From assembly GCA_944387505.1 (NCBI GenBank), contig CALXFG010000003.1, positions 751-64,750 on the forward strand: a stretch of DNA of 64,000 nucleotides, in the 5' to 3' direction. Below, piece after piece: positions 7,378-38,200 of the stretch; the stretch's first letter is position 1, and the number at the start of each line of letters is the position of its first letter. This DNA is from an uncultured Clostridia bacterium. GTDB taxonomy: Bacteria; Bacillota; Clostridia; TANB77; CAG-508. Both the position numbers and the translations under genes were made by a program. The notes under the pieces were generated by a model, which searched no databases, was not told the DNA's origin, and saw nothing but the letters and a program-made list of their open reading frames with translations.

Positions 7378-10300
7378 ATGGCAAATGAGTTACAAAAGGT
7401 AGGACTAGTTTTTACAGAAGAGGGAGCAGTAGATTTTAAGAAAACATTACAAGATATAAATTCAGAATTAAACAAAAACTATAATCAATTTAGATTAACA
7501 CAATCACAATGGGATAGTTCTACATCCAGTACGGAAAAATTAAGAGCATCACAAGAATATTTATCAAATGCTTATCAAATACAACAAGATAGAGTAAATA
7601 CTTTAAGAATGCAGTTAGAGGAGTTAGAAAATTCAGAAAACAAAAACACAACAGCTATAAACAAAAAAAGAAATGAATTAACAAAAGCAGAAATTAAATT
7701 ACAAGATTACAATAGTAAATTAAAAGAAGTAGATGCACAATTAAATGACAGTAATCAAAAATTACAACAATATGGTAAAAAAATTAGTGATGTAAGTGAA
7801 AAAATAAGTGATGTTGGAAATAAAGCATCTGTCATTTCTGCAGGAGTAGCTGCAGGTGGTACGATATTAGCAAACAATGCTATGAATTTAGAAAATGCAG
7901 TAGCTAAATATGTCAGCACTACAAATACAGCTGAAAATGAAACAGAAAAATATAAGCAAGTATTAGAAAACATTAATAAAAATAATTATGGCGAAGGATA
8001 TGAAGATATTGCAGATTCTATGGCACAAGTAACAATGCAATTAAAAGACTTAAATGAACAGGATTTGCAAAATATCACAGAAAAAGCAATAGCATTAAGA
8101 GATTTATTTGGATACGATGTATCAGAAAGTGTTAGAGCAGTAAAAGCAATGATGGATAATCTTAATGTTAGTGCAGACGAAGCTTTTAATTTAATTGCAG
8201 AAGGAAAAAAACAAGGATTAGATTTCTCGAATGAGTTACTAGACAATATTAATGAATACTCTGTACAATTTGGTAAGTTAGGACTATCAGCAGAAGATAT
8301 GTTCAACATATTCAAAGTTGGAGCTGATAATGGAGCATTTAACTTAGATAAAATAGGCGATGCAGTAAAAGAATTTTCAATAAGAGTAATTGATGGAAGC
8401 AATACAACAGTAGATGGATTCAAAAGAATAGGTTTAAATGCAGATAAGATGGCAAAAAAATTCGCTAACGGTGGAGAAGAAGCAAAACAGGCATTTATAG
8501 AAGTTGTAAATCGACTAGGAAGTATGGATGACAAAGTTTCTCAAAGTATTGCAGGGGTTGATCTATTTGGAACTATGTGGGAAGACTTAGGACCAACGGT
8601 TATTACAAGTTTTAGTAAAATGGATAACGGAATATCAAAAAGTAGTGACTCAATGCAAAAGTCTATTGATCAACTATATAACACAACAAAACAAAAAGCA
8701 GAGACACAATTAAAGAGATTACAAAGTCTTGGAGCAGACTTTGGAGACGAAATGTTACCAGTTTTAGAAGATTTAATAGATATGGCAGAAGGATTTATAG
8801 ATAAACTGGAAGGCATGAGCGATGCAGAAAAAGAGAATATTGTAAAAATAGGATTATTTGTAGCGGGAGTAGGACCATTAATAAAAACAATGGGAACAGC
8901 AGGACAAGTGATAGGTGGAGTTACTCAAGGAATTGGAACATTCACGCAAGCAATAGGTGTAGCAACAGGTAAAACAACCTCATCTGTTACAAGTGTAAAC
9001 AATTTAGCAAGTGTATTTGGAAAATTAAGTAATCCTATTAGTTTAACAACTATTATAATAGGAAGTCTGATTGCTGCATACACAGCGCATCATATAGCAG
9101 TAACACAAGAAAAAGCATCATTAGAAGGACTAAGAGAAGAGGTTGAAAATCAAAGTCAATCTTGGCAGTCATTAGCAGAAACTAGAAATGAAACATTATC
9201 TGGAAATTTATCTGAAATTGAAAATACATCTAGGTTAGCAGACGAATTAAAAAAAATAACAGAAGAAAATGGAAAAGTAAAACAGGGATATGAAGATAGG
9301 GCACAAGTTATTTTAAATCAATTAAATTCTGCATTAGGAACAGAATATACTTTAAATGGAAATATCATAAATCAATATCAAGAATTAAAAAACAATATAG
9401 ATCAAATAATTGAAAAGAAAAAAGCAGAAGCGGTATTAAATGCATATCAACAAGAATATGAAACAGCAATAAAAGAACAGGCGGAAGCTACAAAAACATT
9501 AGTAGGATTAAAACAACAATTAGCAGATGCAGCTAATCAAATGGCAACAGGCAATGCAAAAGAAAGAGCGGAAGCACAGTTACTATACAGTAGTATAGCT
9601 CAACATATAGGAGAACAAACAGAAATAATAGGACAATATGGAAAAACTATACAAGATTATGAGAATTTACAATCAGCAAGTGTTTCTGGAAATGCTCAAC
9701 AACTTCAAGAAGCAACTCAAAGTATGATGACATCTTATGAAGAAGTGAAACAAGCTTCGCAACAAACAATCGAAGAACAAATAAATACTCAAACTGAATA
9801 TATGTCAGTATTAAAAAATAGCTTAATAGAAGCTCAAAAGGCAAATGATGAATATCAGAGTAATATATTAAATTCACAATTAGAAACAGAAAAACAAAAG
9901 CTTAACAATTTAGTAAATAGTTTAGTAGAACAAACTTCTACAATACAAGAATTAACCCCTCAACAAATTGATGCTTGGAAAAAAATAGCCGATTCAAGTT
10001 ATATAGAGTATTCAAATGGATTAATGAGGTTACCAGAGGAAACAAGAAATAAAATACAAGAATCAACAGGAAAAATAGCTCATGATACTACAATGCCAAA
10101 TGCTGCAGGAAACAAAGCTACTGTAGTAACAGATGTGTTTGGAAGAAATTTAACTATAGCAGACAAAGCAAGAGAAGATATATCTAATACGTCTAACACT
10201 TTTAGTAGAGATACAACAGTCCAAAATGAAGCAGGAAAACTTGGAAGAGATGCATCAAATTCATTTAAAAATAGTGCAAAAGGAGAACAAACAGGAAAAA

Positions 10301-10716
10301 ATTTCTTACAAGGGTTATTAGCAGGAATAAGAAATGGTTATATACAAAACCAAATAATTAATACAGCAAATTCACTTGGAAATAAAGTAAGCTCCGCAGC
10401 AGCAAAAAGCAGAGTAAGTACTTCTTCATTACCAGGGCATAAATCAGGACTAGATTATGTACCTTATGATGACTATGTAGCAAGGCTACATAAGGGGGAG
10501 CGTGTATTAACTGCAAAAGAAAATAAACAATTAATGAATACAGAAAAAGCAATTAAAAACAATTCAAATAGTAGTGATTTAGGCGCAGTGACAATAGATA
10601 TTGATTATGACAAAATGGCAAATGCAATAACAAAAGCATTAACAAATTGCAAATTTACTTTAGATGAAGATGGATTTGCAAAAATAGTAAAGGACGAGTT
10701 ATATAAGGTGGTGTAA
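7378..10716 (+). CDS. Tail tape measure protein
   Basis: 1112 aa with long coiled-coil regions, a Gly/hydrophobic central segment, and a position before Dit. Confidence 0.9.
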   Translation: MANELQKVGLVFTEEGAVDFKKTLQDINSELNKNYNQFRLTQSQWDSSTSSTEKLRASQEYLSNAYQIQQDRVNTLRMQLEELENSENKNTTAINKKRNELTKAEIKLQDYNSKLKEVDAQLNDSNQKLQQYGKKISDVSEKISDVGNKASVISAGVAAGGTILANNAMNLENAVAKYVSTTNTAENETEKYKQVLENINKNNYGEGYEDIADSMAQVTMQLKDLNEQDLQNITEKAIALRDLFGYDVSESVRAVKAMMDNLNVSADEAFNLIAEGKKQGLDFSNELLDNINEYSVQFGKLGLSAEDMFNIFKVGADNGAFNLDKIGDAVKEFSIRVIDGSNTTVDGFKRIGLNADKMAKKFANGGEEAKQAFIEVVNRLGSMDDKVSQSIAGVDLFGTMWEDLGPTVITSFSKMDNGISKSSDSMQKSIDQLYNTTKQKAETQLKRLQSLGADFGDEMLPVLEDLIDMAEGFIDKLEGMSDAEKENIVKIGLFVAGVGPLIKTMGTAGQVIGGVTQGIGTFTQAIGVATGKTTSSVTSVNNLASVFGKLSNPISLTTIIIGSLIAAYTAHHIAVTQEKASLEGLREEVENQSQSWQSLAETRNETLSGNLSEIENTSRLADELKKITEENGKVKQGYEDRAQVILNQLNSALGTEYTLNGNIINQYQELKNNIDQIIEKKKAEAVLNAYQQEYETAIKEQAEATKTLVGLKQQLADAANQMATGNAKERAEAQLLYSSIAQHIGEQTEIIGQYGKTIQDYENLQSASVSGNAQQLQEATQSMMTSYEEVKQASQQTIEEQINTQTEYMSVLKNSLIEAQKANDEYQSNILNSQLETEKQKLNNLVNSLVEQTSTIQELTPQQIDAWKKIADSSYIEYSNGLMRLPEETRNKIQESTGKIAHDTTMPNAAGNKATVVTDVFGRNLTIADKAREDISNTSNTFSRDTTVQNEAGKLGRDASNSFKNSAKGEQTGKNFLQGLLAGIRNGYIQNQIINTANSLGNKVSSAAAKSRVSTSSLPGHKSGLDYVPYDDYVARLHKGERVLTAKENKQLMNTEKAIKNNSNSSDLGAVTIDIDYDKMANAITKALTNCKFTLDEDGFAKIVKDELYKVV

Positions 10717-10717
10717 C

Positions 10718-11389
10718 ATGTTTAAGTTTAAAGGAATATCTAGTACAGATATGCAAGTAATAATTGAAGAAGAAGAACATTTTATAGCAAGAGCAGCGAA
10801 AAGGTATGAAGTAACAGAAATAGAAGGGCGAGATGGAGCAATATTTGATGAACTAGGTTATTCTTATGTTGAGAGACCAATTTATGTACAATGCCTAAAT
10901 ATTGATAAAATAGACGATATTCTTTCTTGGCTAGATGGAGAAGGAGAGCTTGAATATAAAGGAAGAAAAACAATAGCAAGATTTTATAGTAAATTAGAGC
11001 CACAAAGAGATACAATTATAAGGATAATTGATACAAATTTTATACGAGATCCATTTTGGACGAAAATTGAGGATAATTTTGTTACAGCTACAAACAATAT
11101 TGAAAATACAGGCAATATATACAGTAGACCAATACTAAGATTAGAAAAAACTGATTATGAAGACGTTGATATTGAAATAGCAGGAATAAGATTTCAATAT
11201 ACTTTTGAGGATGATGAATATGTTGAAATAGATTGTGAAGAAAAGACGGCATTATATGAAGGTTTAAATCGAAATAGACAATTGACTATAGGGTATGAAT
11301 TTCCAAAATTAAGCCCAGGGAATAATGTAGTTACAATAAAGGAAGGAGAATGCACAATAAAAGCTAAAAGAAAGGATAGATGGCTATGA
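10718..11389 (+). CDS. Distal tail protein (Dit)
   Basis: 223 aa immediately after the TMP, the typical siphovirus arrangement. Confidence 0.7.
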   Translation: MFKFKGISSTDMQVIIEEEEHFIARAAKRYEVTEIEGRDGAIFDELGYSYVERPIYVQCLNIDKIDDILSWLDGEGELEYKGRKTIARFYSKLEPQRDTIIRIIDTNFIRDPFWTKIEDNFVTATNNIENTGNIYSRPILRLEKTDYEDVDIEIAGIRFQYTFEDDEYVEIDCEEKTALYEGLNRNRQLTIGYEFPKLSPGNNVVTIKEGECTIKAKRKDRWL

Positions 11390-14298
11390 TAAAAATATTT
11401 GATGCAAATGACAAAGATTTTACTACGGCAGGTAATATAGTTATTAATCCTACAAAATGCTTGGAATACAAGAAAAAGTCTTTAAATGGTTGGTATATTG
11501 AAGTTGAAATACCAATTAAGTATAAAGATTATATAGAAAAAGATAAATTATGTGTCGTAAAAACAAAATCAAAATTAAATCCACAAGCTTTTAGAATTGG
11601 AAACGATATAAAAAAGACAAATCGAAAAATAACCTTTACAGCGAATCATGTAATGTTTGATGCACAGGATTATTTCTTAGTAGATGTAAGACCAACAAAT
11701 CAAAATGGACTAAATGCTCTAAATTATATAAACGATAGGACTGATAATGTCAGTCCTTTTACTATATATTCGAATGTTGAAAATGTAAATACTGCCTATT
11801 TTATTAGAAAAAATCTGTTAGAAGCATGGGCAACAATAGAAGAAAGATGGAATGGTGTTTTTGATGCAGATAACTGGAATATTAGTTTTTTACAAAGTGT
11901 TGGACACGATAATGGAGAAAGCATTATATACGGAAAAAATATGCAATCTATGGAAATTTATGAAGATTGGTCTAGTGTTGTAACTAGATTATATCCTGTG
12001 GGTTCAAATGAATTAATGTTACCAGAAAAATATATAGAAAGCGATGTGCAATACGAAAAGCCATATACAAGAACAGTAGAATTTCAAACAAAATTAGAAC
12101 AAGAAGAACAAACAGAAGAAGCATTAATAGAAGAATTAAGAACAAATGCTGAGGCATATATAGAAGAAAACAAATATCCTAAAGTAAGTTATACAACCAC
12201 CTCTGATATAAATGACGATATGGAAATAGGAGATACTATTCAAGTATTACATCCACTCGTCACTATACAAACAGAAGTCTTAGAATATCAATATGACATT
12301 ATATCTAAAAAAGTAAAATCTTTAACTTTTGGAAACTTTACAAGAGATGTAAAAGCTAAATTTGATAATATAAAAAATACTATAAATCAAATTGGACAAA
12401 CAGTATCAAATCAAGAAACAGTTATACAACAACAAACAAATTTAATCAATTCTTTAAATAAAAATGGATATGTGTATATAGATGATAATGAAATACTGAT
12501 TTTAGATAAAATACCAAAAGAAGAAGCAGAAAATGTATGGAGATTTGGTTTAGGTGGTATAGGTTTTAGTTCTAATGGTTATGAAGGTCCTTTTGAAGTG
12601 GCAATAACAATGGACGGACAAATAAATGCAGATTTCGTTACGACAGGAACAATGAACGTTAGTAGGATAGAAGGGTTAGCAAATATTATTTCTGATTACA
12701 ATGCACAAATTGCAGCAATAACTTTACAGTTAGGACAAATACAACAACAGGTTTCCAGTATGGAAGAATTTAGCCGAGAAGTAACAGGAACAAACGAAAT
12801 ACATTTAGAGAATACTGTTGAAGGGCAAGAATATGTATTAAATTTTAAAATAAAAGGAGATAGTGATAAATTTATTTATCTAACTCCAAGCAATACACTA
12901 GTACCTAGTAACACTTTGGTTCCATTGGGAGATCATTTTACTCTAGTATCTGATAAGCAGAATAGAAATTCAATAAGTGATGATGCTCAAATAATAGATG
13001 TCATATTAAGTGAACCATTAAGGAGTTTGAATGATGTATATGATGAGTTAAACATAGTTAATGGTAAAACAACTGTCACAAGGAGAATAGGCGTAGACGA
13101 AAATTTAAATCTATATGAATTAGACAATGAAGTAATAGAAAATCTACAAGATATATCTTTAAAAACTTTTGACGAAGATACTTATATTTATATAAAAGAG
13201 TACGAAGGATTAGAATATTCTGTAAAATATATAATAAAAAATGATTATATAGATATATTAGCTACAAAAGTAGAAATGAATACTGCAATTACTCAAACAG
13301 CAAATAGTATTACCAGCTCTGTTTCGGAAACATATGAAACAAAAGAAAATGCTCAAACTCGATATTCACAAATAAAACAAACAACTGATAATATCAGTTT
13401 AGAAGTAGGTAAAAAAGTAGATGATGAAGAATTAACTGGAGCGAATATTGCATTAAGAATAAATGGAGATACTAGCGAAGCTGCAATCAATGCTGATAAG
13501 ATAAATATAAATGGAGTTATTTCTGCAAATGGAAATTTTAAAGTTAATACTAATGGAACGTTAACAGCCATAAATGCTTATCTTTCAGGACTTCTTATAA
13601 ATGGAGGAAATCCACTAGAAAATGAATCAGGAACAATGATAGATAAAAATGGAAATATGTATTGCAGCAATTTAAGAATATATTCTAATATTGGCTTTAA
13701 TGGATTGCAAGTATTTGCAACTAATAATAATTGTAGAACAATAATAATAAACAACGGATTGCAAATATATCCAAATAACAATTCTTCAGAACGAACATTT
13801 GAAGCATTATATAGTGAAAATAACGGATATTCATACATAAGAATGCAAAGCGGACGAATACAAATTCAGAATGGAATTATCTTTTTAAATAACGGAGAGC
13901 TAAATGTTGGACATATCAACGCTTCAGGATATGGATATTTCAATGATTATGTAAGAGCTACTCAATTTGTAAATGCATCTCAAAAAGAGAAAAAGGAAAA
14001 CATAAAAAAATTAAAAGAATTAAAAATAAAACGAAAAGCACTTGACATAGTAAAGAATACAGATATTTGCGAATATAATTTCAAAGGAAGTAAACATAAA
14101 CAAATAGGGGTAATCATAGGAGACGGATATAATGCACCTGACGAAATATTAAGCGAAGATAAAAATGGTATAGATTTGTATAGCATGATTTCTAATCTTT
14201 ATAGAGCATTTCAAGAATATATAGAGGAACAAGAAGAAAAAATAAATAAATTGGAAGAAAAGTTGAAAAATTATGGAATGGATAAAGAAAATAGTTAA
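11386..14298 (+). CDS. Tail-associated lysin/tail fibre (Tal) with a C-terminal intramolecular-chaperone (S74-like) domain
   Basis: ATGA overlap with Dit. About 970 aa. The C-terminus (...KHKQIGVIIGDGYNAPDEILSEDKNGIDLYSMISNLYRAFQE + coiled coil) resembles auto-cleaving chaperone domains of tail fibres. Confidence 0.7.
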   Translation: MIKIFDANDKDFTTAGNIVINPTKCLEYKKKSLNGWYIEVEIPIKYKDYIEKDKLCVVKTKSKLNPQAFRIGNDIKKTNRKITFTANHVMFDAQDYFLVDVRPTNQNGLNALNYINDRTDNVSPFTIYSNVENVNTAYFIRKNLLEAWATIEERWNGVFDADNWNISFLQSVGHDNGESIIYGKNMQSMEIYEDWSSVVTRLYPVGSNELMLPEKYIESDVQYEKPYTRTVEFQTKLEQEEQTEEALIEELRTNAEAYIEENKYPKVSYTTTSDINDDMEIGDTIQVLHPLVTIQTEVLEYQYDIISKKVKSLTFGNFTRDVKAKFDNIKNTINQIGQTVSNQETVIQQQTNLINSLNKNGYVYIDDNEILILDKIPKEEAENVWRFGLGGIGFSSNGYEGPFEVAITMDGQINADFVTTGTMNVSRIEGLANIISDYNAQIAAITLQLGQIQQQVSSMEEFSREVTGTNEIHLENTVEGQEYVLNFKIKGDSDKFIYLTPSNTLVPSNTLVPLGDHFTLVSDKQNRNSISDDAQIIDVILSEPLRSLNDVYDELNIVNGKTTVTRRIGVDENLNLYELDNEVIENLQDISLKTFDEDTYIYIKEYEGLEYSVKYIIKNDYIDILATKVEMNTAITQTANSITSSVSETYETKENAQTRYSQIKQTTDNISLEVGKKVDDEELTGANIALRINGDTSEAAINADKININGVISANGNFKVNTNGTLTAINAYLSGLLINGGNPLENESGTMIDKNGNMYCSNLRIYSNIGFNGLQVFATNNNCRTIIINNGLQIYPNNNSSERTFEALYSENNGYSYIRMQSGRIQIQNGIIFLNNGELNVGHINASGYGYFNDYVRATQFVNASQKEKKENIKKLKELKIKRKALDIVKNTDICEYNFKGSKHKQIGVIIGDGYNAPDEILSEDKNGIDLYSMISNLYRAFQEYIEEQEEKINKLEEKLKNYGMDKENS

Positions 14299-14369
14299 AA
14301 AGCTAATCAAAATAGCGATTAGTTTTTTTATTTTGTGGTTTTTATATTTTATAAGAATGAGGTGAGAAA

Positions 14370-14756
14370 GTGGAAGAAGATGTTTATATAGAATTTAAAA
14401 ATGGACAAGCACCGTATATTAGTGACATAAATTTAAAACAGATGCAAAAATTGATTAAATCTGATATAAAAGAAAAACAAGCATTTAAATATATATTAGA
14501 AATTACAGAAGACAAAACCGCAGGACAAGAAATAACATTACCTTGTTATTATAAGGTCGGAGAAGAAGTACTAGATGTTTATTTAAATGGAGAACGTTTA
14601 ATTAGAAGCACAGACGAATCTGGAACAGATGGACATTATTGTGAAATAGGAGATACAGGAAGTATAAGCAACAAAATAAAAACTACAACAGACTGGAATC
14701 TAGAAACTGGAGATGTACTAGATTTAGTAGTAAGGGGGGAATATAATGGTACCTAA
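14370..14756 (+). CDS. Phage hypothetical protein (tail-fibre accessory region)
   Basis: GTG start after GAGGTGAG. 128 aa. Confidence 0.5.
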   Translation: MEEDVYIEFKNGQAPYISDINLKQMQKLIKSDIKEKQAFKYILEITEDKTAGQEITLPCYYKVGEEVLDVYLNGERLIRSTDESGTDGHYCEIGDTGSISNKIKTTTDWNLETGDVLDLVVRGEYNGT

Positions 14757-15174
14757 TTCATTGGAAAAAAGTGCATTAAAAGTATCAATCAAAGAATCTG
14801 TTACAGTTTCAGGACAAAGTGAGGAAACTTTAATACCAATGACAAAAATTCAAGAGCAAAATGGCAATGGTTTAAAAGTTTTAGCAGATGGAACTATACA
14901 AGCAACAAGAGATATGAATGTTTTTGCTAATGCATTAATAAATATTTATGTTTTATCAACAAATTTAAATAATGCAACAAGATTGTCTATTCAGGTAAAT
15001 AATAAAATAATATCTTCTGATCAACATTCATATTCGGCAGGATTTCATGTTATTTCTTATATAAAACTGAAAAAAAATGATATTATAAAATTAACTTTTA
15101 TTGATTTTAATGACGATATATCAAAAACAGGTTCAAATTTAAATACTAATCACATCGATATATTTGAAATATAA
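14746..15174 (+). CDS. Phage hypothetical protein
   Basis: 142 aa, overlapping the previous gene by 11 nt. Confidence 0.5.
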   Translation: MVPNSLEKSALKVSIKESVTVSGQSEETLIPMTKIQEQNGNGLKVLADGTIQATRDMNVFANALINIYVLSTNLNNATRLSIQVNNKIISSDQHSYSAGFHVISYIKLKKNDIIKLTFIDFNDDISKTGSNLNTNHIDIFEI

Positions 15175-15192
15175 AAAATAAGGAGGATAAAA

Positions 15193-15255
15193 ATGAAAAC
15201 AATAAATCCTGAAAGCCTTACGGCTGTACACACACACACACACACACACTTATAA
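15193..15255 (+). CDS. Leader ORF 1 (20 codons, MKTINPESLTAVHTHTHTHL) containing the (CA)10 tract
   Basis: AGGAGG (15181-15186) lies 6 nt before ATG 15193, with TAA at 15253-15255. Confidence 0.5.
   Translation: MKTINPESLTAVHTHTHTHL
15229..15248. repeat. Perfect dinucleotide microsatellite (CA)10
   Basis: Read directly: cacacacacacacacacaca, flanked by gta...ctt. Confidence 0.98.
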
Positions 15256-15282
15256 TCTAAAAAAGAAAAGAGGTGTTATATA

Positions 15283-15606
15283 ATGATACCTCTTTGTAAA
15301 AAAGATAAAGAAAATCTAAATGATTTAGAACAAAAATATAATAGCATAAAACAATTTACAAACAGTATATATGCAAATAATGGAAAAATAGAAATATCTA
15401 CTACTAATGGAACATTTTTAGTTTGGATTGTAACATCAGGAGGAGGACAAACACCATCACTTGTATTAATAAGCGTAGAAAATAGTGGAAATATGCAATA
15501 TTGGGGACAAGGTGGCATGCATAATGCTCCTACATATTCAAATGGAAAAATAACAATAACAACAAAAAATCAGTATTTCCGTTACGGATATATAAAATTA
15601 AATTAA
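15283..15606 (+). CDS. Phage hypothetical protein (107 aa, MIPLCK N-terminus), cargo 1
   Basis: ORF with its SD GAGGTG buried in a stem 15267-15276/15286-15295. Confidence 0.65.
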   Translation: MIPLCKKDKENLNDLEQKYNSIKQFTNSIYANNGKIEISTTNGTFLVWIVTSGGGQTPSLVLISVENSGNMQYWGQGGMHNAPTYSNGKITITTKNQYFRYGYIKLN

Positions 15607-15625
15607 TAGATAAGGAGAAAGTAAA

Positions 15626-15691
15626 ATGAAAGAAAGACGTAAAATCCTTGATACTCTAAGAGAGAGAGAGAGCTACACTTTACTAAAATAA
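15626..15691 (+). CDS. Leader ORF 2 (21 codons, MKERRKILDTLRERESYTLLK) containing the (AG)7 tract
   Basis: AAGGAG (15612-15617) lies upstream of ATG 15626, with TAA at 15689-15691. Confidence 0.5.
   Translation: MKERRKILDTLRERESYTLLK
15659..15672. repeat. Perfect dinucleotide microsatellite (AG)7
   Basis: Read directly: agagagagagagag. Confidence 0.98.
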
Positions 15692-15713
15692 TAAAAAGCA
15701 AGGAGGTGTTGAG

Positions 15714-16061
15714 ATGATACCTCTTTGTAAACAAAATAAGTCAGAAAAAATCTTAGACACAACAAATGAAGAATATAATATCGAGATAAAAGCATATAAA
15801 TCTGGAAAAGTAATTATGGTAACATTATATACAATGAATTTAATTAAACAATTAAATCAAGGTGCAGTAAATGCTTTAATTGCACAATTAGGTGAAGAAA
15901 ATGGAGCAGTTGAAAGCTATAGAAAAATAATTCAATCATCAAGAGGAGAAATATTTAGTATTAGATGTGAATCTAATGGAAATATATATATAGCTTATGC
16001 ATATAATAATATTTCAAAATCAAGCCAAATAGCAGGAAATTTAACATACATAGCAAAATAA
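15714..16061 (+). CDS. Phage hypothetical protein (115 aa, MIPLCK N-terminus), cargo 2
   Basis: ORF with its SD GGAGGTG buried in a stem 15700-15709/15717-15726. A terminator hairpin follows at 16090-16125. Confidence 0.65.
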   Translation: MIPLCKQNKSEKILDTTNEEYNIEIKAYKSGKVIMVTLYTMNLIKQLNQGAVNALIAQLGEENGAVESYRKIIQSSRGEIFSIRCESNGNIYIAYAYNNISKSSQIAGNLTYIAK

Positions 16062-16139
16062 AAAAGGATAAAAAATAATATTAAAAATAATAGCATATAT
16101 GTTGCTATTATTTTTTTAGACTGTTTATAGGAGGATAAG

Positions 16140-16442
16140 ATGTTAGAGTCTATTGGAGTTTATATAGCAACAACAATTATAGGAGCAATATTAGGATTTA
16201 TTGCTGCTAAATACAAAAAAAACAAGAAAAAAGATTTAGCAATAGAGCAAGGGGTACAAGCTTTGCTCAGAAATGAAATAATACGAAGATATCGAGAATT
16301 TGAGAGTAAAGGTGAAATATCTATACTAGATCAAGAAAACTTAGATGAAATGTTTATACAGTATCAAAACCTTGGAGGAAATGGTACAGTTAAAAAAATG
16401 ATGAATGATTTATATGAATTAAAAACAAAAATTGTAAGATAG
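16140..16442 (+). CDS. Phage membrane protein of the lysis module (N-terminal TM, possible holin partner)
   Basis: SD AGGAGG. TM IGVYIATTIIGAILGFIAA followed by a basic stretch. Located directly before the holin. Confidence 0.5.
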   Translation: MLESIGVYIATTIIGAILGFIAAKYKKNKKKDLAIEQGVQALLRNEIIRRYREFESKGEISILDQENLDEMFIQYQNLGGNGTVKKMMNDLYELKTKIVR

Positions 16443-16454
16443 GAGGGATTAAAG

Positions 16455-16658
16455 ATGTCTAATAAAGTATATGATGTCTTAAAATGGATTACATTAGTAT
16501 TTTTACCAGCATTAACAACTTTAACAGGTGTAATTTTAAATTGTTTTAATGTAGGTTGTACAGATATAGTTTTAACAATTATGACAGCCGTAACAACTTT
16601 TATGGGAGCAATCTTAGGAATATCTAATATTAATTATAATAAAAACAAGGAGGAATAA
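16455..16658 (+). CDS. Holin (phi LC3 / Dp-1-like small two-TM type)
   Basis: 67 aa. The pattern YDVLKWITLVFLPALTTL...TAVTTFMGAILGIS is typical of this holin family, and it sits immediately upstream of the endolysin. Confidence 0.75.
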   Translation: MSNKVYDVLKWITLVFLPALTTLTGVILNCFNVGCTDIVLTIMTAVTTFMGAILGISNINYNKNKEE

Positions 16659-16661
16659 ACA

Positions 16662-17336
16662 GTGAATTACAGTGAATTTATCAATGAATATAATGGAAAA
16701 TCTTTTGATTATGATGGAGTTTCAGGAGTTCAATGCGTAGATTTAATCAAAATGTATTTGAATAAAGTATTTGGATTAAATCCAGGTGCTTGGGGAAATG
16801 CTAAAGATTACTATGAAAATTTTAATAATTTACCATTAAAAAATAGTTTTGATAGAATAGCAAATACTCCAGAATTTGTACCACAAAAAGGAGATATTGC
16901 AGTATGGGGTACAGGACTTGGTAATACATATGGACATGTAGCAATAGCTACAGGAGAAGGAAATACATCTAATTTCTATACATACGATTTAAATTGGAAT
17001 GGTAAAATAGTTCATAAAGTAAATCATACATATAAAGGATTTTTAGGAGTATTAAGACCAAAAGACCAATCTAAAATTGGTACAGAAACAGTAGTAGAAA
17101 ATAATTCTAATAAGGAGGAATTTGATATGCCAAAAACATGGAAAAATGGAAGTACAAATGAAGATGTTTACGCAGATACAGATATGACTAAAAAAATAGG
17201 AACTATATATCCAAGAGGAGAAGCAGATTGCTATGGAGTTGTAGACGGAAAATATTTAGTTTGCTATAATATCTATAGTGGAAATACAGTAGCAAATAGA
17301 AAAACTGGATTCGTTAAATATAACGGTGGTTTATAA
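16662..17336 (+). CDS. Endolysin: N-terminal CHAP domain plus a C-terminal SH3-like wall-binding domain
   Basis: CHAP catalytic context GVQCVDLIK (Cys) and YGHVAIATG (His). GTG start. Last gene before the terminator. Confidence 0.85.
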   Translation: MNYSEFINEYNGKSFDYDGVSGVQCVDLIKMYLNKVFGLNPGAWGNAKDYYENFNNLPLKNSFDRIANTPEFVPQKGDIAVWGTGLGNTYGHVAIATGEGNTSNFYTYDLNWNGKIVHKVNHTYKGFLGVLRPKDQSKIGTETVVENNSNKEEFDMPKTWKNGSTNEDVYADTDMTKKIGTIYPRGEADCYGVVDGKYLVCYNIYSGNTVANRKTGFVKYNGGL

Positions 17337-17342
17337 AATTCA

Positions 17343-17382
17343 AGAGCTAGATTAGATTAATTTCTAGTCTAGCTCTTTTTTG
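17343..17382 (+). terminator. Rho-independent terminator ending the lysis module
   Basis: AGAGCTAGATTAG ... CTAGTCTAGCTCT followed by TTTTTT. Confidence 0.8.
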
Positions 17383-17502
17383 CGTTATATGGCTAAAATC
17401 AAGGGATGTAAGTATATTGCTTAAAAATAAAAAAGGCTAAAAACGCAAAATAAAAGGTCGATTTTTGATTGATATTTCAAAGAAAAATAGGATTTTAAAA
17501 AT

Positions 17503-17531
17503 TTGCATTTTGTGAAAATTTGTGGTATAAT
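17503..17531 (+). promoter_or_regulatory. Promoter P1 (TTGCAT-17-TGgTATAAT)
   Basis: -35 at 17503-17508 and an extended -10 at 17523-17531. Confidence 0.5.
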
Positions 17532-17625
17532 ATTGACAGAAACAGGAAGAAATGTTACAATTCTATTACAAAAATATTACAAAAAGAGCATATATTACAG
17601 TTATATGAAGTCTTTGTAATATTTA

Positions 17626-20061: not shown

Positions 20062-23000
20062 TTGAAAACAAATAAAATATTAAAAATTGATGGAACAATA
20101 TTAGACAAAAAGCAATTAGAAAACCATTTACAAAAAATAGCATCAAACCATAACTTAATCAACAAACCATCAAAAGAAACATATCCAATTCCGCAATTAA
20201 TCGAAAATTATGAAACGATAAAAATGGTATATAACTTATTGAATGAACATGTAAAATTAGGAATGAATACACATCCAGCAGGTGAATGGTTGCTAGATAA
20301 TTTCTATATTATAGAAGAAACCGTAAAACAAATCCAAAAAGAATTAACACTAAAAAAATACATGAATTTTCTAGGAATTGCGAATGGAAAATACAAAGGA
20401 TTTGCTAGAATCTATGTATTGGCAGCAGAAATTGTAGCCTATACAGATAATAAAATTGAAAAAGAAGATTTAGAAGACTATCTGGCAAGTTACCAAGAAA
20501 AAAAGACATTAAGTATGGAAGAAATTTGGAATATTGGATTGTTTCTTCAAATAGCCATTATTGAAAATATTAGAGAAATTTGTGAAAAAATATATAGTAG
20601 TCAAATACAAAAAATGAAAGCAGAAAATATTGTACGAAAACGAATGGAAACACCTAAAGACAATAAAGATAATCCTATATATCCTCTAAAAAATATCAAA
20701 AAAGATATATTAAATGACGTCAAATATCCATTTATTGAATATATGTCATATATCCTAAAACGATATGGAAAAAAAGGATATCGCTATTTAAAAATATTAG
20801 ATGAAATTGTAGAAATGACAGGAACGACCGTACAAGAAGTTATCAAAAAAGAACATTTTGATATTGCTGTTAAAAAAGTATCTATTGGCAATAGTATTAC
20901 AAGCATAAAGACCATTCAAAGAATCAATTTTTTAGAAATTTTTGAAAAAATAAATGGGGTAGAAGAAATTTTAAAACAAGACCCAGCAGATGTGTATTCT
21001 AAAATGGACAATCCGACAAAAGAGAGTTATAGAAACAGCATTAAAGAAATATCGAAAAAAACAAAAATATCAGAAATTTATATAGCTAAAAAGATTTTAC
21101 AATTGGCAAAAGAAAATGAAAACAATGGAAAAAAAGCACATATAGGATATTATATCATTGATAAAGGAATTGACAAAGTTTATCAAGAATTACAGTGTAA
21201 AGCACCAAAACATATGGGAGAAAAAACAAAGCAAAAACTGTATATTACAAGCAATATCATTTTATCAATTGTATTGTCACTTGCATTTAGTAGTATTTTA
21301 AATCTATATACAAAAAATTTAGGAATATATCTATTGAGTTTTTTCATTTTATGGATTCCATCATCAGAAATTGTCACCCAAATCATACAATATATGTTAA
21401 GTAAAGTAGTAAAACCAAAACCAATTCCTAAAATAGATTTCTCAAAAGGAATTGATGAAAAACATGCTTGTATGGTAGTGATTCCCACCATATTGAAAGA
21501 CAAAGAAAAAGTAAAAGAATTGATGTACAAATTAGAAGTGTATTATATTGCAAATAAATCCAAGAATTTGTACTTTACTTTATTAGGTGACTGCTCAGAA
21601 AGTGGCATGAAAGAAGAAAAAAGTGATCATGAAGTGATTGAAGCAGGAATCCAATTAGCGGAAAACTTGAATAAAAAATATGCAACAGAAAATGCTTTTC
21701 CGATTTTTCATTTTATTTATAGAAAAAGAGAATGGAATGAAAAAGAAAATTGCTATTTAGGATGGGAAAGAAAAAGGGGAATGCTGACACAATTTAATGA
21801 ATATTTATTAGGACATGAAGAAAATGTATTTCGTGCCAATACCATAGAAGAATACAAAGATTGCATTCCTAAAATACAATATGTGATTACCTTAGATGCA
21901 GATACAGAGCTAATTTTAAATTCTGCATTTGAATTGGTAGGAGCAATGGCACATATCTTAAATAAGCCAGTCATGGATGAAGAGAAAAATGTTGTCATAG
22001 AAGGTCATGGAATCATTCAACCAAGAATAGGAATCAATTTAGATATTTCATATAAAACGATATTTACACAAATATTTGCAGGAGCAGGGGGGATAGACTC
22101 TTATACAAATGCGATTTCTGATTTATACCAAGACAATTTTGGAGAAGGAATTTTCACAGGAAAAGGCATTTATGATTTGAAAGTATTTTCAAAAGTATTA
22201 AAAAATGCGATTCCAGAAAACACCGTATTAAGTCATGATTTATTAGAAGGATGTTATTTACGTTGTGGATTGGCAACAGACATTATGCTAATGGATGGTT
22301 ACCCTACAAAATATAATAGTTTTATGAACCGATTATCTAGATGGATAAGAGGAGATTGGCAAATTATTAGTTGGCTGAAAAGTAAAATAAATAGCAAAGT
22401 AGGAGACATACCAAATCCATTAAATAATCTTTCAAAATATAAAATCTTTGATAATTTAAGAAGAAGTTTAATAGAAATAGCGGTTATCATTTCTTTGATT
22501 TTGTTTGCTATACTAGGAAAGCAATATCATTTTAAAACATATCCATTTATGGCGATAAGTCTCATCACAGTAGTCATGTCTTATATATTAGAAATTTTTA
22601 ACACTATGTTAGTAAAAAAAGAAGGGGAGCATAAGCAAAAAAAATTCTCTCCTAGAATATCAGGATATAAAGGAATTGGTTTAAGAATCTTAATAACCAT
22701 AGGCGTATTACCATATAAAGCATATATGTCCTTTATAGCTATAGTAAAAACATTGTATCGAAAATGGGTGAGCCACAAGAAACTATTAGAATGGATGACA
22801 TCTGAAGAGGCAGAAAAACAAGCCAAAAATGATGTGATGTCATATGTAAAACAAATGTGGTTTAATATCGCTTTGGGAATTTTAAGCCTAGGACTTGCAT
22901 TAACAAACAAAGGCTTTGGAGATTTTATTATTGAAACCATATTGGGAATTTTATGGATCGTTACACCGGTTATCATGTGGTATATTAGCAAGGAAAAGAA

Positions 23001-26000
23001 GGAACAAAAGACAATTGAAACATTAGATCAAACAGAAATAGAATATGTCCTAGAAATCGGAAGAAAAACATGGCAATTCTTTAAACAATACATCACAAAA
23101 GAAAACAATTATCTGATGCCAGACAATTACCAAGAAGATAGAAAACAAAAAATTGTTGCAAGGACATCTTCAACCAATATAGGATTGTCAATCTTAGCCA
23201 TTGTTTCAAGTTATGATTTACAATATGAAACATTACCAGATACCATAGATTTATTATATAAAGTTATAACTTCAGTGGATAGTTTGCAAAAATGGAATGG
23301 ACATTTATACAATTGGTATGATACCAAAACAAAAGAACCATTACGACCAAGATATATTTCAACAGTGGATAGTGGGAATTTCGTGGGATATTTGTATGTG
23401 ACAAAAGCCTTTTTAGAAGAAATACTAGAAACGTTACAGAACAATGATAATCAACGTTTTGAAAAAGATATGCAACATAAAAAAAACAAAGTAGAAAATG
23501 AAGAAAAAATGCTAACCTTACAAAATCAAATACGAGAAATGCTAGAAATCATTGAAAGAACCATTCATCAAACAGACTTTAGCTATTTATATAGTCAAGA
23601 ACATCAAATCTTTTCCATCGGATACAATATTGAAGAAAACAAACTAACAGATTCGTATTATGATTTATTAGCAACAGAAGCAAGACAAGCAAGTTTAGTT
23701 GCCATTGCGAAAAAAGATATTCCATCAAAACATTGGAATCATTTAAGTAGAACATTAACCGTTTTGGGAAAATATAAAGGATTAATTTCTTGGTCAGGAA
23801 CCGCATTTGAATACTTAATGCCAAATATCAATATTCCTAAATACAAAGGTAGCCTACTAGATGAATCTTGCAAATTTATGATGATGAGTCAAATGAAATA
23901 TGCAGAAGAAATGCATTTACCATTTGGAGTATCTGAATCTGCATTTAATTTAAAAGATTTACAATCTAATTATCAATATAAAGCATTTGGAATTCCTTGG
24001 CTGGGACTAAAAAGAGGGCTAGCAGATGAAATGGTGGTATCTTCTTATGGTAGTATATTAGCCATTACCGATATTCCAAAAGAAGTCGTTAAAAATTTAA
24101 AAGTATTAGAAAAATATGGTATGTATAACCAATATGGATTTTATGAGTCAATAGATTTTACACCAGAAAGAGTTAAAAAAGGAAAAGAAGCAGAAGTTGT
24201 CAAAACCTATATGGCACATCATCAGGGATTAATCTTATTATCGATTAATAACTTAATCAATCAACTGATTTTACAAAAACGATTTGTAAAAAATCCAGAA
24301 ATACAAGCAGTTACTATCCTACTTCAAGAAACCATGCCAGAAAAAGCCATTATCACAAAAGAAGATAAAGAAAAGGTAGAAAAACTAAAATACAAAGATT
24401 ATGAAGATTATATTGTAAGAAGTTATAACAAAATAGATGAAAGATTGATAACAGGAAATGTCATTTCTAATGAAAATTATATGATAGCAATGAATCAAAA
24501 AGGTGAGGGTGTTAGTCAATATAAAAATATGTATATCAATCATTTTAAGCGTACAGATGATAATACACAAGGAATGATATTTTATATCAAAAGTATTAAA
24601 AATAAACAAATCATGAGTTCAAGTTATTCACAAAATAGGGGAAATGCATATCAAATTCGATTTATGCCAGATAAGGATGAACAAGAGATAACAAGTGGAA
24701 ATATAAAAGCGAAGATAAAAACAACCGTTGCCTCAAATGAACCAGTAGAATTGAGAAGAATCCTATTAGAAAACTTAGGAAACGAAGAAGAAATTGTAGA
24801 ATTAACAGGATATTTTGAACCAATCTTAGTACCCAAAGAACGATATTATGCCCATCCAGCTTTTAATAATCTATTTTTGGTATATGAATATGATGAAAAA
24901 AGTGAAGCTTTAATTGTAAAAAGGAAGAAAAGAGAATTAGGAGAAAAAGAAATCTATTTAGCCACAACACTACATGCTAGTAGAGAAAATAGAATTGGTG
25001 ACTTAGAATATGAAATAGAAGAAGAAAAATTTATGGGAAGAGGGAATTTAACAATACCCAAAATGGTCAAAGACTCATTGCCATTTTCTAAAAAAATAGG
25101 ACTTGTAACAGAACCAGTAGTAGCATTGAAAAGAACTATCAAAATAAAAAGCCAGGAAAAAGTAGTTATTGATTTTATAGTATCTGTAGAAGAGGATAAA
25201 GAGCAAACTGTTCAAAATTTAGAAAAATATATGTCTTTCGAAAATGTAAAAAATGAATTTGACTTGTCAAAAGCCAGAGTAGAAGCAGAAACCAGATATT
25301 TAAATGTGAAAGGAAAAGATATAGAGAGTTTTCAAAAAATGTTGGCATATATTTTGTTTGACGATTCTATTAAAAGTGTAGAAAAAGAAAAAATAAAACA
25401 AATACAATCATTCAAACAAAGTGAACTATGGAAATATGGAATATCAGGAGATTTGCCAATTGTCTTGGTGAAAATGAAAAATGTAAACGATGCAGATGGA
25501 TTAAAGGAAGTTTTAAAAGCTTATGAATATTTTAGAACCAAAAATGTAGAAACAGAAATTGTCATTATAGATGAAGAAAAATATAGTTATGAAAATTATG
25601 TAAGAGAAGAAATAGAGTCAACCATATTAAACCAACACATGGGATATTTGAAAAATATAAAGGCAGGCATCTTTATACTAAATGAAGAGGAAATGGATAG
25701 ACAAGATATTACATTTTTAGAATTTATATCTGTCATCACAATTGATTGTGCAAAAGGAAATTTAGAAAATAATCTAAAAGAAATAGAAGAAACGTATTTA
25801 GAAAACTATAAAGAAATTAGTGAAGAAGAAAATACAAATCAATTTACAGAAGAAAATACAGAAGATATGGATATCTTAAAAAATACAGAAAATTTAAAAT
25901 ATTATAATGAGTATGGAGCTTTTTCAGAAGATGGAAAAGAATATTGGATATGTGTGAATAAAGGAAAAAGATTACCAACTGTCTGGTCACACATTATGGC

Positions 26001-35252: not shown

Positions 35253-38200
35253 TTGAAAAAGAACATTAAAAACAAAAGTAAAGTCATCATTAGTATCATT
35301 TTTATCGTGATATTAGTAGTAGGAATGTTATCAATGTATTTAAAAAGTAATACAGAAAAGATATCTTTAGCAGGGAATTGGTTAAATGCAATGAATGCCA
35401 ATGTGGAACAAAGAACAGTAGGAAGTGGACTAGAATCTGCATACATTGAATGGGAAAATGTTGATGGAGCCACAGGATATAATGTATATATATGTAATGA
35501 GGCATCTGGTAACTATGAGCAACTAGATAATGAATTAATCAGACAATATAAAGATGGAGCAGCTTCTTATTGGAGAGCAGATGCTGTAGGATTAAAAGCA
35601 GGAAAATATCATTTTAGAATTGTACCAATCATAAATGGTCAAAACGATAGTAGCAAACAATTTGATTCAGATGTCATAACTGTACAAGCACATGATAGAA
35701 CAGGATTTGCATGGGTAGATGGAGAAACAACAGGTGCATATAATATAGATGGTACATTAAAAGAAAATGCGAATGTTTTATATGTTACAGAAGAAACTAA
35801 AGATACTGTTTCTTTAGAAGTACAAACAAGTTCAAATGGAAAAACAGAAACAGCACAAGGATTACAAAATATTTTAGATTTATATAAAAAAGGATATGAT
35901 GCCACACCACTTGTTATCAGATTTATTGGTAAAGTAACTGACCCAAGTACATTAGATGGTGGAGATATTGTCATTAGTGGAAGTGGTTCAGATAAAAGAA
36001 TCAATTGTGGAATCACATTAGAAGGAATTGGAGAAGATGCCACATTATATGGATATGGTATTAGAATCAAAAATGCGACAAATGTAGAAATTAGAAATAT
36101 AGCAGTTATGCTAACAGATAGTGATGAAGGAGATAGTATTGGACTTCAACAAGAAAATGATCATGTATGGGTACATAATTGTGACTTCTTCTATGGAGAG
36201 CCAGGAAGCGATTCAGATCAAGTAAAAGGTGACGGCGCATTAGATTGTAAGAAATCAACTTATGTAACATTTTCATATAATCATTTCTTTGACACAGGAA
36301 AGAGTAATCTTTTAGGCTTAAGTGAAGATACAACAGATGGATTATATATTACGTATCATCATAATTGGTATGACCATTCTGATTCAAGACATCCAAGAAT
36401 TAGATTTTACTCTGCACATGTATACAATAATTATTATGATGGAAATTCAAAATATGGTGTAGGAGCATGTTTGGGTTCATCTGTTTTAGTAGAAGGAAAC
36501 TACTTTAGAAATTGTAAAGATCCTATGATGATTTCTATGCAAGGTTCTGATACAAGTGGAACATTTTCTAAAGAAGATGGAGGAATGATAAAAGCATATA
36601 ATAATTATATGACAGGACAAAAATCATATATACCATATTCACAAGATAATAAAAGTTTTGATGCTTATGAAGTATCAAACATTGATGAAACAATACCTAG
36701 TTCAGTAAAATCATTGCAAGGGGGAAATACATATAATAATTTTGATACCTCAAGTATTATGTATAAATATGAAGCAGATAGCCCAGATGTAGCAAAACAA
36801 AAAGTAGAAACATATGCTGGTCGTTTAAATGGAGGAGACTTTAAATGGGAATTTAATGATTCTGAAGATGATGAATCAGATAAATTAAATACAGAATTAA
36901 AAGAGGCTTTAGAAAATTATGAAACCAATTTGTTGTCAGTCGGTGGAAATTCTATTGATTCACCAGAAGAGCCAGAAGAGCCAGAGCCAGAAGAACCAGA
37001 GAAGCCACAAGTGATTCCAGTAGAAGGTATAGCATTGAATATGCAAGAAGTTACATTAGAAATAGGAGAATCAACAACATTGGAAGCAACCATAACACCA
37101 GATAATGCAACAAATAAAAATGTAACTTGGAGTTCAAAAGATAGTGATATAGCAAGTGTGAATGATGGTGGACAAGTAATAGCTAAAGAAGAAGGAGAAA
37201 CAACGATAACCGTAACGACAGAAGATGGAGAAAAAACAGCAACTTGTAGTGTTACAGTACTTCCAAATGAAGAGCCAGAACCTGAACCAGAGCCAGAAGT
37301 AATTCCAGTAGAAAATGTAGTATTAAATCAAAATAATGTCACTTTAAATGTTGGAGAAACAGCTAATTTAGAAGCAACCATAACACCAGATAATGCAACA
37401 AACAAAAATGTAACTTGGAGTTCAGAAGATAGTGATATAGCAAGGGTAGATAATAATGGACAAGTAACAGCAATAAGTTCAGGTGAGACAACAATAATGG
37501 TAACCACAGAAGATGGAGAAAAAACAGCAGCTTGTAGTGTTACAGTACTTCCAAATGAAGAGCCAGAACCTGAACCTGAGCCTGAGCCTGAACCAGAACC
37601 TGAACCAGATCCAGATCCAGAAGAAATTCACGTAGAAAAAGTTGATTTGAATTTACAAAATGTTTCGTTAGAAATTGGAGAAAAAGCAACATTAGTAGCC
37701 ATTATCACACCAAATGATGCTACAAATAAAAATGTAACTTGGGCATCTGAAGATGAAAATATAGCAAGTGTAGATGATGGAATTGTAACAGCAATCGGAC
37801 CAGGAGAAACAACGATAACTGTAACGACGGAAGATGGAGAAAAAACAGCAACATGCAGAATTACGGTTACAGAAGAAGTGGAAGAGTTGATATCAACCAT
37901 TTCTTATGATTATACTGAACGAACAAATCAAAATGTTACAGCAACCATTACATTTAATAGAGATGATGTTACTATAACCAATAACGAAGGAAGTAATGAA
38001 TATGTTTTTGAAGAAAATGGAACATTTACTTTTGAATATATCGATAGTGAAGGAAATGTTTCTCAAAACATAGCAAGAGTTATTTGGATAGATAAAGAAG
38101 GACCACAAATCAATGTAAATTATGAAACAATCAATAATGGACAAGCGGTACAAGTAACCATACAAGCAAATGAAGAATTAAAACCAATAGAAGGCTGGAC

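Follow-up and report, generated by a model that had tools for sequence, protein, structure and literature searches.

Tandem dinucleotide-repeat leader cassettes as probable slippage switches of tail-tip genes in a Clostridia prophage

Introduction

Simple-repeat phase variation is textbook knowledge for bacterial surface genes, and the classical dinucleotide contingency loci, such as the CT repeats of Helicobacter pylori outer-membrane protein genes, lie within the open reading frame (ORF) itself. Hairpins that sequester a ribosome-binding site (RBS) are familiar from the ermC and cat leader peptides, from the coat-replicase junction of phage MS2 and from overlapping ATGA gene pairs, and the diversity-generating retroelements (DGRs) of Bordetella phages vary their receptor-binding proteins (RBPs). 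The closest known system to the locus described here is the pil1/pil3 switch of Streptococcus gallolyticus, in which the ORF of a leader peptide contains GCAGA repeats and a terminator is destabilised when the leader is longer (Danne et al. 2014, PMC3894217). In phages, contingency loci with in-ORF tracts in T2 and T4 have been argued to serve as bet-hedging devices (bioRxiv 10.1101/2025.10.21.683753), and Rin shufflons are reported from bifidobacterial prophages (PMC6109161). Here we analyse two tandem leader cassettes, an (AC)n and an (AG)n module, in 64,000 nucleotides (nt) of DNA from an uncultured Clostridia bacterium (contig CALXFG010000003.1, positions 751 to 64,750 of the forward strand; GenBank assembly GCA_944387505.1). 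This entire stretch is referred to as the window, and all coordinates without a locus name are window coordinates.

The two modules lie in the late tail-to-lysis block of a prophage, each ahead of a small gene whose start site is enclosed in a predicted hairpin. We consider it likely that both are heritable, reversible slippage switches that are read out by translational coupling, i.e. that the number of repeat units in a short leader ORF decides whether a translating ribosome reaches the hairpin of the following gene. The analysis followed up an original prediction made by a model from the sequence alone, which had described the AG module as a switch and as the second of a pair.

Anatomy of the two modules

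All features of both modules are encoded on the + strand. In module 2 the Shine-Dalgarno (SD) sequence AAGGAG (15612-15617), read in the sequence 8 nt ahead of ATG 15626, precedes leader ORF 2, which in its present frame comprises 21 codons (MKERRKILDTLRERESYTLLK, 15626-15691), contains the (AG)7 slippage tract (15659-15672) and ends at TAA 15689-15691, 25 nt upstream of the masked ATG. The stop at 15689 belongs to tracts with n = 1 mod 3. With n = 2 mod 3 the leader ends at TAA 15684-15686, at -30 from the masked ATG, a stop retained across all AG modules. With n = 0 mod 3 it runs through, this frame being open from 15652, after TGA 15649-15651, to the TGA at 15715-15717 that overlaps the start codon as ATGA and is common, at +1, to every AG module. 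A 13-bp hairpin (15698-15728) covers the next SD, GGAGG (15702-15706), and the AUG at 15714-15716; RNAfold pairs 15698-15710 with 15716-15728 around a 5-nt loop at -17.0 kcal/mol (z = -6.5; 0/200 shuffles fold as well). The putatively switch-controlled gene 2, of 115 aa (15714-16061), thus has the hairpin 3' arm as its first ~6 codons. The original prediction had placed the SD, leader, tract and stop of module 2 correctly, had read the open coupling frame with its ATGA overlap as it stands in the sequence, and was also right that the gain of one AG unit moves the stop to 15684-15686. The stem that pairs the SD is likewise present, though it had been drawn as 10 bp with the whole AUG in a 7-nt loop; in the RNAfold structure the A and U of the AUG are in the loop and the G is in the stem. 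Within gene 2 there is an (AT)5 tract (15982-15991, codons NIYIAY), which has an equal length in L001-L004, L130 and L131 and is apparently not variable.

There is no U-run 3' of the module 2 stem, and a terminator scan gives no call there. This bears on the reading of the hairpin as a pil1-type attenuator, in which the same logic of a simple sequence repeat (SSR) in a leader would act on transcription and set the mRNA level, a ribosome that reads through keeping a terminator or pause hairpin from folding. Such a device has a direct precedent in GCAGA repeats within a leader ORF that stops at varying distances from a terminator hairpin (PMC3894217), and the 3' arm of the stem does end in the somewhat U-rich CUCUUUGU. 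We nevertheless regard attenuation as unlikely: the hairpin encloses the gated gene's SD and AUG and reaches with its 3' arm into coding sequence, unlike that of pil1, and termination at this point would deprive holin and endolysin, which lie further along the same operon, of their transcript, unless a separate promoter serves the lysis block (cf. 16083-16117).

Module 1 is organised in the same fashion. An SD, AAGGAGG (15180-15186), is followed by a leader ORF (MKTINPESLTAVHTHTHTHL, 15193-15255) with the (AC)11 slippage tract (15228-15249), and n = 0 mod 3 gives a run-through frame ending in TAATG. A 13-bp hairpin (15267-15295; z = -6.8; -14.4 kcal/mol for the hairpin alone) masks the SD and ATG 15283 of the putatively switch-controlled gene 1, of 107 aa (15283-15606). 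Directly 5' of the AC tract lies a 4-bp mini-hairpin, AGCC-UUAC-GGCU (15214-15225, -5.2 kcal/mol), whose nucleotides are kept in most AC leaders (AGCCTTGTGGCT in others), while AG leaders have the related GCCTTGATGCT; the mini-hairpin may affect slippage, or may merely reflect the common descent of both leader types. A perfect TATAAT directly follows the AC tract (15251-15256), and the same bases supply early-frame stops.

The tracts could in principle be promoter elements whose length tunes transcription initiation, as in spacer-type phase variation. At 15227-15256 a promoter scan picks out TACACA-18-TATAAT, whose -35 falls within the tract, and TATAAT or TATAGT occurs after most AC tracts. 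These bases, however, give the conserved stops of both early frames; a -35 within a period-2 tract leaves the spacing unchanged by tract length; the post-tract sequence of L165 has no such -10; and promoter-like matches in the region number 20 against 22.7 expected from shuffles. A transcript from this site would, moreover, start at the hairpin without the leader and be permanently masked, and we hold a promoter function of the tracts to be extremely improbable.

How far the arrangement in the window could be due to chance depends on which of its parts is considered. (AC)11 and (AG)7 are the sole long non-AT dinucleotide tracts in the 64 kb, for which ~0.03 are expected, and the SD...ATGAnACCT hairpin motif occurs at exactly two sites, where 0 are expected. 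The original prediction had argued from the reading frames that a chance arrangement is unlikely; the pattern of one through and two early frames is by itself found at 2-3% of random sites, which makes one such case weak evidence. The evidential weight rests on the comparative data and not on the single locus.

Tract-length variation and frame states

Relatives of the 115-aa and 107-aa products fall into 8 and 17 clusters, respectively, among 5.8 billion proteins, and all are metagenomic. Together with one metagenome-assembled genome (MAG; L147, uncultured Eubacteriales bacterium), the contigs of these relatives provided ~30 loci of related prophages. The AG tracts in these loci have 5, 6, 7, 8, 10, 12 and at least 14 units (the last an incomplete tract), and the AC tracts 8, 9, 10, 11, 12, 13, 14 and 15 units. 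In four pairs from different samples, each 99.5-100% identical, whole repeat units are the only indels. The window, with (AG)7, and L002, with (AG)6, differ by 1 mismatch in 939 nt; L005 and L007 carry (AC)12 and (AC)11 and are otherwise identical over ~1.3 kb; L154 and L155 differ in both tracts, (AC)12 vs 14 and (AG)8 vs 7, with 4 mismatches in 892 nt; and L165 and L166 carry (AC)13 and (AC)11 with 0 mismatches in 2000 nt. Compound tracts also occur, (AC)10(AT)12 in L002 (2500-2543) and L004 (1-44) and (TA)5(CA)5 in L168 (1960-1979). The AC tract seems able to turn into, or to gain, an adjacent AT tract, which would be a second mutable element in the same leader.

Each of the three frame states is represented among the loci, about one module in three being in run-through. 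Run-through AG modules have six units (L002, L004, L130, L131), and run-through AC modules 9, 12, 15 and 11 units (L129, L005, L154, L163 and L159), while both modules of the window, with (AC)11 and (AG)7, are in early-stop frames. The length polymorphism that had been anticipated from the window is thus present, and the (AG)6 tracts of L002 and L004 give exactly the ATGA-coupled frame that the loss of one AG unit was predicted to produce. The two modules do require opposite length changes to enter their run-through frames, one unit more for AC and one unit fewer for AG, and their tracts do vary independently of one another, as L154 and L155 illustrate. Both modules at once were in run-through in 0/7 loci, against an expected frequency of 1/9, a difference that is not significant. 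Many contigs, mostly Logan assemblies, start or end exactly at a tract (L004, L006, L132, L158, L160, L162, L164, L169), and in the MAG scaffold L147 the AG tract is interrupted by a run of N. These breaks are suggestive of length heterogeneity within a sample, and an assembler artefact is also possible.

Conservation of the cassette and its frame logic

All related loci have Tal, an anchor-bearing gene of ~130 aa, two to four small genes and the lysis genes, and in nearly all of them a cassette stands ahead of one or two of the small genes. In each cassette an SD and ATG serve a leader that contains (AC)n or (AG)n, two stops lie close together, and a hairpin of 12-14 bp encloses the SD and AUG that follow. 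An SD plus ATG stands ahead of every leader, and the leader peptides vary by locus (MRNHKSLDAL.., MGIIKHVSLDTL.., MKKRITVDTL..), but the tract-bearing ORF is always there. Two of the three frames end between -21 and -30 from the masked AUG, upstream of the stem that starts at -16, and the third crosses the hairpin and stops at -2 (TAATG), +1 (ATGA) or +14; this three-frame logic holds in all complete modules, i.e. in ~12 distinct cassettes, and no recovered module has its coupling frame closed by a stop, an outcome that would have spoken against the original prediction.

The sequence around the tracts has changed in ways that leave this logic intact. It is unaffected by TAA-to-TAG changes at the early stops (L130, L163, L002) and by a 3-nt in-frame deletion (AAAATAATAAAAAGC to AAAATAAAAAGC); a 1-nt difference in loop length shifts the through-frame stop from +14 to -2; and in L165/L166 the post-tract sequence is almost wholly different with the frames kept. 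The hairpin energy is -13 to -19 kcal/mol in all tract-bearing modules, and among 14 distinct hairpins 93% of the cells are paired, with mostly one-sided G-C/G-U changes. One SSR-less derivative was found: L008 (3337-3400) has lost both leader and tract. Its upstream gene, of 112 aa, terminates at the former -30 stop of the cassette, with 30 nt left to the following ATG, and no other hairpin is as weak as the one kept here (-9.6 kcal/mol, with ATGAAACC replacing ATGAYACC). L008 may be a locked derivative of the switch.

These comparisons bear most directly on the possibility that the tracts are neutral and hypermutable, the leaders incidental and the hairpin a constitutive damper for poorly tolerated tail-tip genes. 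The incidence of the frame pattern at random sites, the weak covariation of the hairpin and the retention of a hairpin without a tract in L008 are all in keeping with such a view. It would, however, have to accommodate the SD, ATG, tract and frame logic kept over ~12 diverged cassettes (related by descent), the stop-preserving substitutions and frame-preserving indels among them, and AC and AG tracts held at 5-15 units in DNA of 29% GC where ~0.03 are expected per 64 kb; besides, the tract-less hairpin of L008 is the weakest of all. Neutrality of the tracts is on this evidence distinctly unlikely.

Searches beyond the relatives of the gated proteins added little. A metagenome scan with a hairpin pattern stricter by one base at its 3' end (ACCTYWTTT, not ACCTYWTT) returned ~120 mostly unrelated loci, of which only L005 and L007 had a tract, and a genome scan returned one true locus (L147) and 19 unrelated terminator-like hairpins. 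Scans of IMG/VR with four cassette patterns gave no relevant match, L153 being an unrelated terminator-like hairpin. Rfam matched no family in window 14000-17600, and blastn of 14300-17400 against a phage GenBank collection found no match.

Portability of the cassette and the gated gene products

Cassettes and genes are paired in more than one way. The window has its AC module ahead of the 107-aa gene and its AG module ahead of the 115-aa gene, a pairing that is reversed in L154-L158, and in L005, L130 and L168 cassettes stand ahead of other small genes, of 121, 109 and 136 aa. The cassette also imposes the N-terminus of whatever follows it: 115-family proteins begin with MIPLCKQ, MTPFCKQ or MIPRFKQ behind a hairpin and with MQPTHKE if directly coupled to an upstream gene, 107-family proteins with MIPLCKQ behind a hairpin and MYPIHKK if directly coupled. 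In profile comparisons the two families have only these first ~11, cassette-coded residues in common, and neither resembles the 128- or the 142-aa protein encoded upstream. The same N-terminus (MIPLCK/MTPFCK) on two unrelated families argues that the 3' arm is conserved as nucleic acid and not as protein. The AC leader (..GCCTTACGGCTGTA(CA)n) is related to the AG leader (..GCCTTGATGCTCTA(AG)n), and the modules are therefore paralogous copies of one portable cassette. The independent construction of module 2, with a different dinucleotide and leader peptide, on which the original prediction had laid weight, is thus not borne out. Two simpler roles for the 5' region were considered and dropped. 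A fusion of leader and downstream ORF into an N-terminally extended protein is precluded by a TAA at -30/-27 in the gene's own frame in every AG module, and MIPLC as a lipobox is contradicted by the lack of a signal peptide, its residues being set by the hairpin arm.

Pfam and PHROGs assign no family to the 107-, 115-, 128- and 142-aa proteins. The AlphaFold (AF2) model of the 115-aa product (predicted local distance difference test, pLDDT, 74) is an eight-stranded beta-sandwich, and its top Foldseek matches in the PDB are the RBP heads of TP901-1 ORF49, p2 and bIL170 and Listeria PSA gp15 (template modelling (TM) score 0.67-0.70, probability 1.0, best E-value 9e-4). With moderate confidence we assign it a receptor-binding-head-like fold of the lactococcal phage type. 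The 107-aa model (AF2 pLDDT 85) has an N-terminal helix and a beta-sandwich; it has no convincing match in the PDB, and its matches in BFVD, to tail-spike and fibre proteins of phages, are weak. Exhaustive hidden Markov model (HMM) searches place the 115-type domain at the extreme C-terminus of proteins of 160-295 aa, behind fibre-like N-termini (P0027, P0028, P0033, P0040, P0041, P0045). The N-terminal module of P0028 (MDKINFESGTKI...PAQYSGNTP...LNLLQTNIE) matches the N-terminus of P0022, which carries a 107-type domain in place of the 115-type, and in P0019 a 107-type domain is fused to the N-terminal anchor, 28 residues long, of the 128-aa protein in the window. As judged from these models and domain arrangements, the products of both gated genes are head-like distal domains of short tail fibres, interchangeable with one another and made without an N-terminal anchor; the location of the genes between Tal and holin fits this assignment.

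The fusion in P0019 invites another interpretation, namely that the gated genes are silent donor heads, that the 5' cassette serves mainly as homology for recombination into the anchor-bearing gene after Tal, and that the tracts are by-products. In P0019 the anchor is indeed joined to the 107-family head where the cassette-encoded N-terminus ends, and heads and cassettes have been reshuffled between phages, the AC cassette, which accompanies the 107 gene in the window, being joined to the 115 gene in L154. However, leader and head gene each have a consensus SD and ATG in every cassette, together with a conserved frame logic that homology for recombination would not call for; no recombinase is seen adjoining the modules; and the anchor-less heads that are directly coupled upstream in L005 and L161 are plainly arranged for expression. 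That the heads are mainly silent donors is very unlikely in our view, and the idea is in any case compatible with a slippage switch.

Proposed mechanism and points against it

The switch would operate as follows. Strand slippage during DNA replication would alter the number of AG or AC units in a short, efficiently initiated leader ORF, and the unit number modulo 3 would fix the reading frame of the leader. In two frames the ribosome would end 21-30 nt before the AUG, short of the hairpin, and the gene would be translated barely or not at all; these frames are the putative OFF states. In the third frame it would cross the 5' arm and the loop and end on or just past the AUG, so that the hairpin melts and the freed SD and AUG allow reinitiation or fresh 30S binding and hence translation of the gene. 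For both modules of the window the ON frame would be that with n = 0 mod 3. In the work of Takyar, Hickerson and Noller (2005), the ribosomal helicase reportedly acts ~11 nt 3' of the first P-site base; given this boundary, a ribosome that stops at -25 or -30 should leave the stem, which begins at -16, intact. Two tandem switches might then create subpopulations of lysogens or virions with differing tail-tip complements, a form of bet-hedging on adsorption or host range. The broader proposal, that this is a portable, enzyme-free phase-variation cassette of a group of Clostridia prophages, whose tandem copies combinatorially set which RBP heads are made, seems to us about equally apt to prove right or wrong.

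Several observations weigh against a slippage switch of this kind. The tract differences could include stutter from assembly or the polymerase chain reaction, which is unlikely because the same differences recur in independent assemblies. In some loci the stops are at -21/-22, from where a terminating ribosome would open the lowest 2-3 bp of the stem; the OFF state may hence be leaky or graded, and the two early frames may differ slightly in leakiness. The frame logic has a sole exception in L160, whose leader start is cut off: compared with L159 (2447-2501), which has the same gated gene, L160 (1-60) carries a 1-nt insertion after the AC tract that deletes one early stop and leaves two run-through frames, ending at +1 TGA and +14 TAA, so that the 2:1 logic is not absolute. 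The covariation of the hairpin is weak, with one double-change pair and a shuffle control that is not significant, a test that is uninformative because the columns are too conserved, and the 5' arm is the SD and would be conserved in any event.

Two further points concern the products. The gated proteins have no N-terminal anchor of the kind seen in the full fibre proteins, the 115-aa product starting with the cassette-coded MIPLCK; separately encoded tip adhesins, such as gp38 of phage T2, are a possible analogy for such anchor-less heads. In L165-L167 (P0023-P0025; L165:2501-2825) a 1-nt insertion at the conserved TSGGGQTPS site (ACATCCCGGAAGTGGACAA vs ACATCTGGCGGTGGACAA) splits the 107-type gene behind the AC module into ORFs of 80 and 37 aa. 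This is not a sequencing error, since three clusters agree (the DNA was read for the P0023 loci only), and the 107-type gene is therefore dispensable in these phages.

Prophage context

The first 17.4 kb of the window, whose overall G+C content is 29.4%, are the right arm of a siphovirus-type prophage of gut-type Clostridia. The tape-measure protein (7378-10716), Dit (10718-11389) and Tal (11380-14298) are followed by four small genes, a phrog_4105 protein, a Dp-1-type holin (16455-16658) and a CHAP endolysin (16662-17336). Of the four small genes, the first two are tail-tip genes of 128 and 142 aa (14370-15174, + strand). The 128-aa product carries the N-terminal anchor motif (..NGQAPYISDINLKQMQ..), and the 142-aa gene is coupled directly to it through an overlap of ATG and stop; in other phages the slot of the 142-aa gene is filled by genes of the 115 or 107 family. 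The junction between the 128-aa anchor gene and the next gene, GTAAGGGGGGAATATAATG (14730-14748), holds a G6 run and is kept in L005 and L129 despite differing downstream genes. It is most likely the SD and start of the coupled gene, and a run shorter by one G would join both ORFs into one.

Between gene 2 and the phrog_4105 and holin genes there is an AT-rich 13-bp hairpin with a U-run (16083-16117), kept in L005 and L129, which looks like a weak terminator within the late gene block and bears on the question of whether the lysis genes have a promoter of their own. An integrase follows the endolysin in L002, and none is seen at the equivalent position of the window. The right end of the prophage abuts host genes (17340-46000), among them those of a 2750-aa protein with GH94/glucoamylase domains (20062-28314) and of a pectate-lyase/Big_2 protein (35253-38528). 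The host genes beyond the prophage comprise this giant GH94 protein and then MraW, PBP, MurE, MraY and FtsW of the dcw cluster.

Comparison with known systems

In a full-text literature search we found neither SSR phase variation that acts via translational coupling nor phage receptor-binding genes switched by an SSR, an absence that holds within the searched literature only. SSR phase variation has only recently been proposed for phages, with in-ORF tracts, whereas in the present case the regulated protein itself would never be altered. If our interpretation is correct, translational coupling would be a third SSR route beside in-ORF frameshifting and promoter spacing, next to the single case of attenuation at pil1; it would provide temperate gut phages with an enzyme-free means of tail-tip diversification, and contingency at the level of translation initiation would let a phage hedge its host range or adsorption. 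Annotation pipelines would miss the cassette because its leaders have 17-35 codons and the gated genes have no family assignment. The cassette is compact (~90 nt) and portable, and could serve as a possible design for heritable stochastic switches.

Parts of the proposed switch are shared with known systems. As in the H. pylori and T2/T4 contingency loci, slipped-strand changes of an SSR would move translation into another frame and turn a function at the surface or in host interaction on or off; there, however, the regulated ORF itself carries the tract, and the OFF state yields a truncated protein, whereas here only the frame of a separate leader changes. The masking of the downstream SD and AUG in a stem that is opened by a ribosome on the upstream ORF, together with the overlap of stop and start, is shared with ermC and cat, with MS2 and with ATGA gene pairs, where opening is constitutive or results from drug-induced stalling; in the prophage modules a mutable tract would decide, and the state would be heritable and stochastic. 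The outcome would resemble that of Gin in Mu, Cin in P1, the Rin shufflons and the DGRs, i.e. a temperate phage that makes subpopulations with alternative tail-tip specificities out of a small set of exchangeable distal modules, but those systems depend on site-specific inversion or mutagenic retrohoming, both of which require an enzyme, whereas the present device would need no dedicated enzyme and would act on translation.

The likeness to pil1 goes furthest. In both cases the SSR is inside a dedicated leader ORF (here with its own SD and start) and not in the regulated gene or its promoter, the repeat number sets the frame and thereby the distance from leader stop to hairpin, a ribosome at the hairpin turns the gene ON (a prediction for the prophage modules), and, as with pil1 and pil3, two loci in one genome carry the same device. 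The differences lie in the parts. The pil1 repeat is the pentanucleotide GCAGA, present 13-22 times, whereas the prophage tracts are dinucleotides; the pil1 hairpin is an intrinsic terminator upstream of the operon's RBS, whereas here it masks the RBS and AUG, with an ATGA or TAATG overlap; two of three frames are ON in pil1, and usually one of three is predicted to be so here. The prophage modules belong to a late operon, and there is no sequence similarity between the two systems. The present locus would thus work like pil1 but stands outside that type, as its hairpin lacks the terminator feature.

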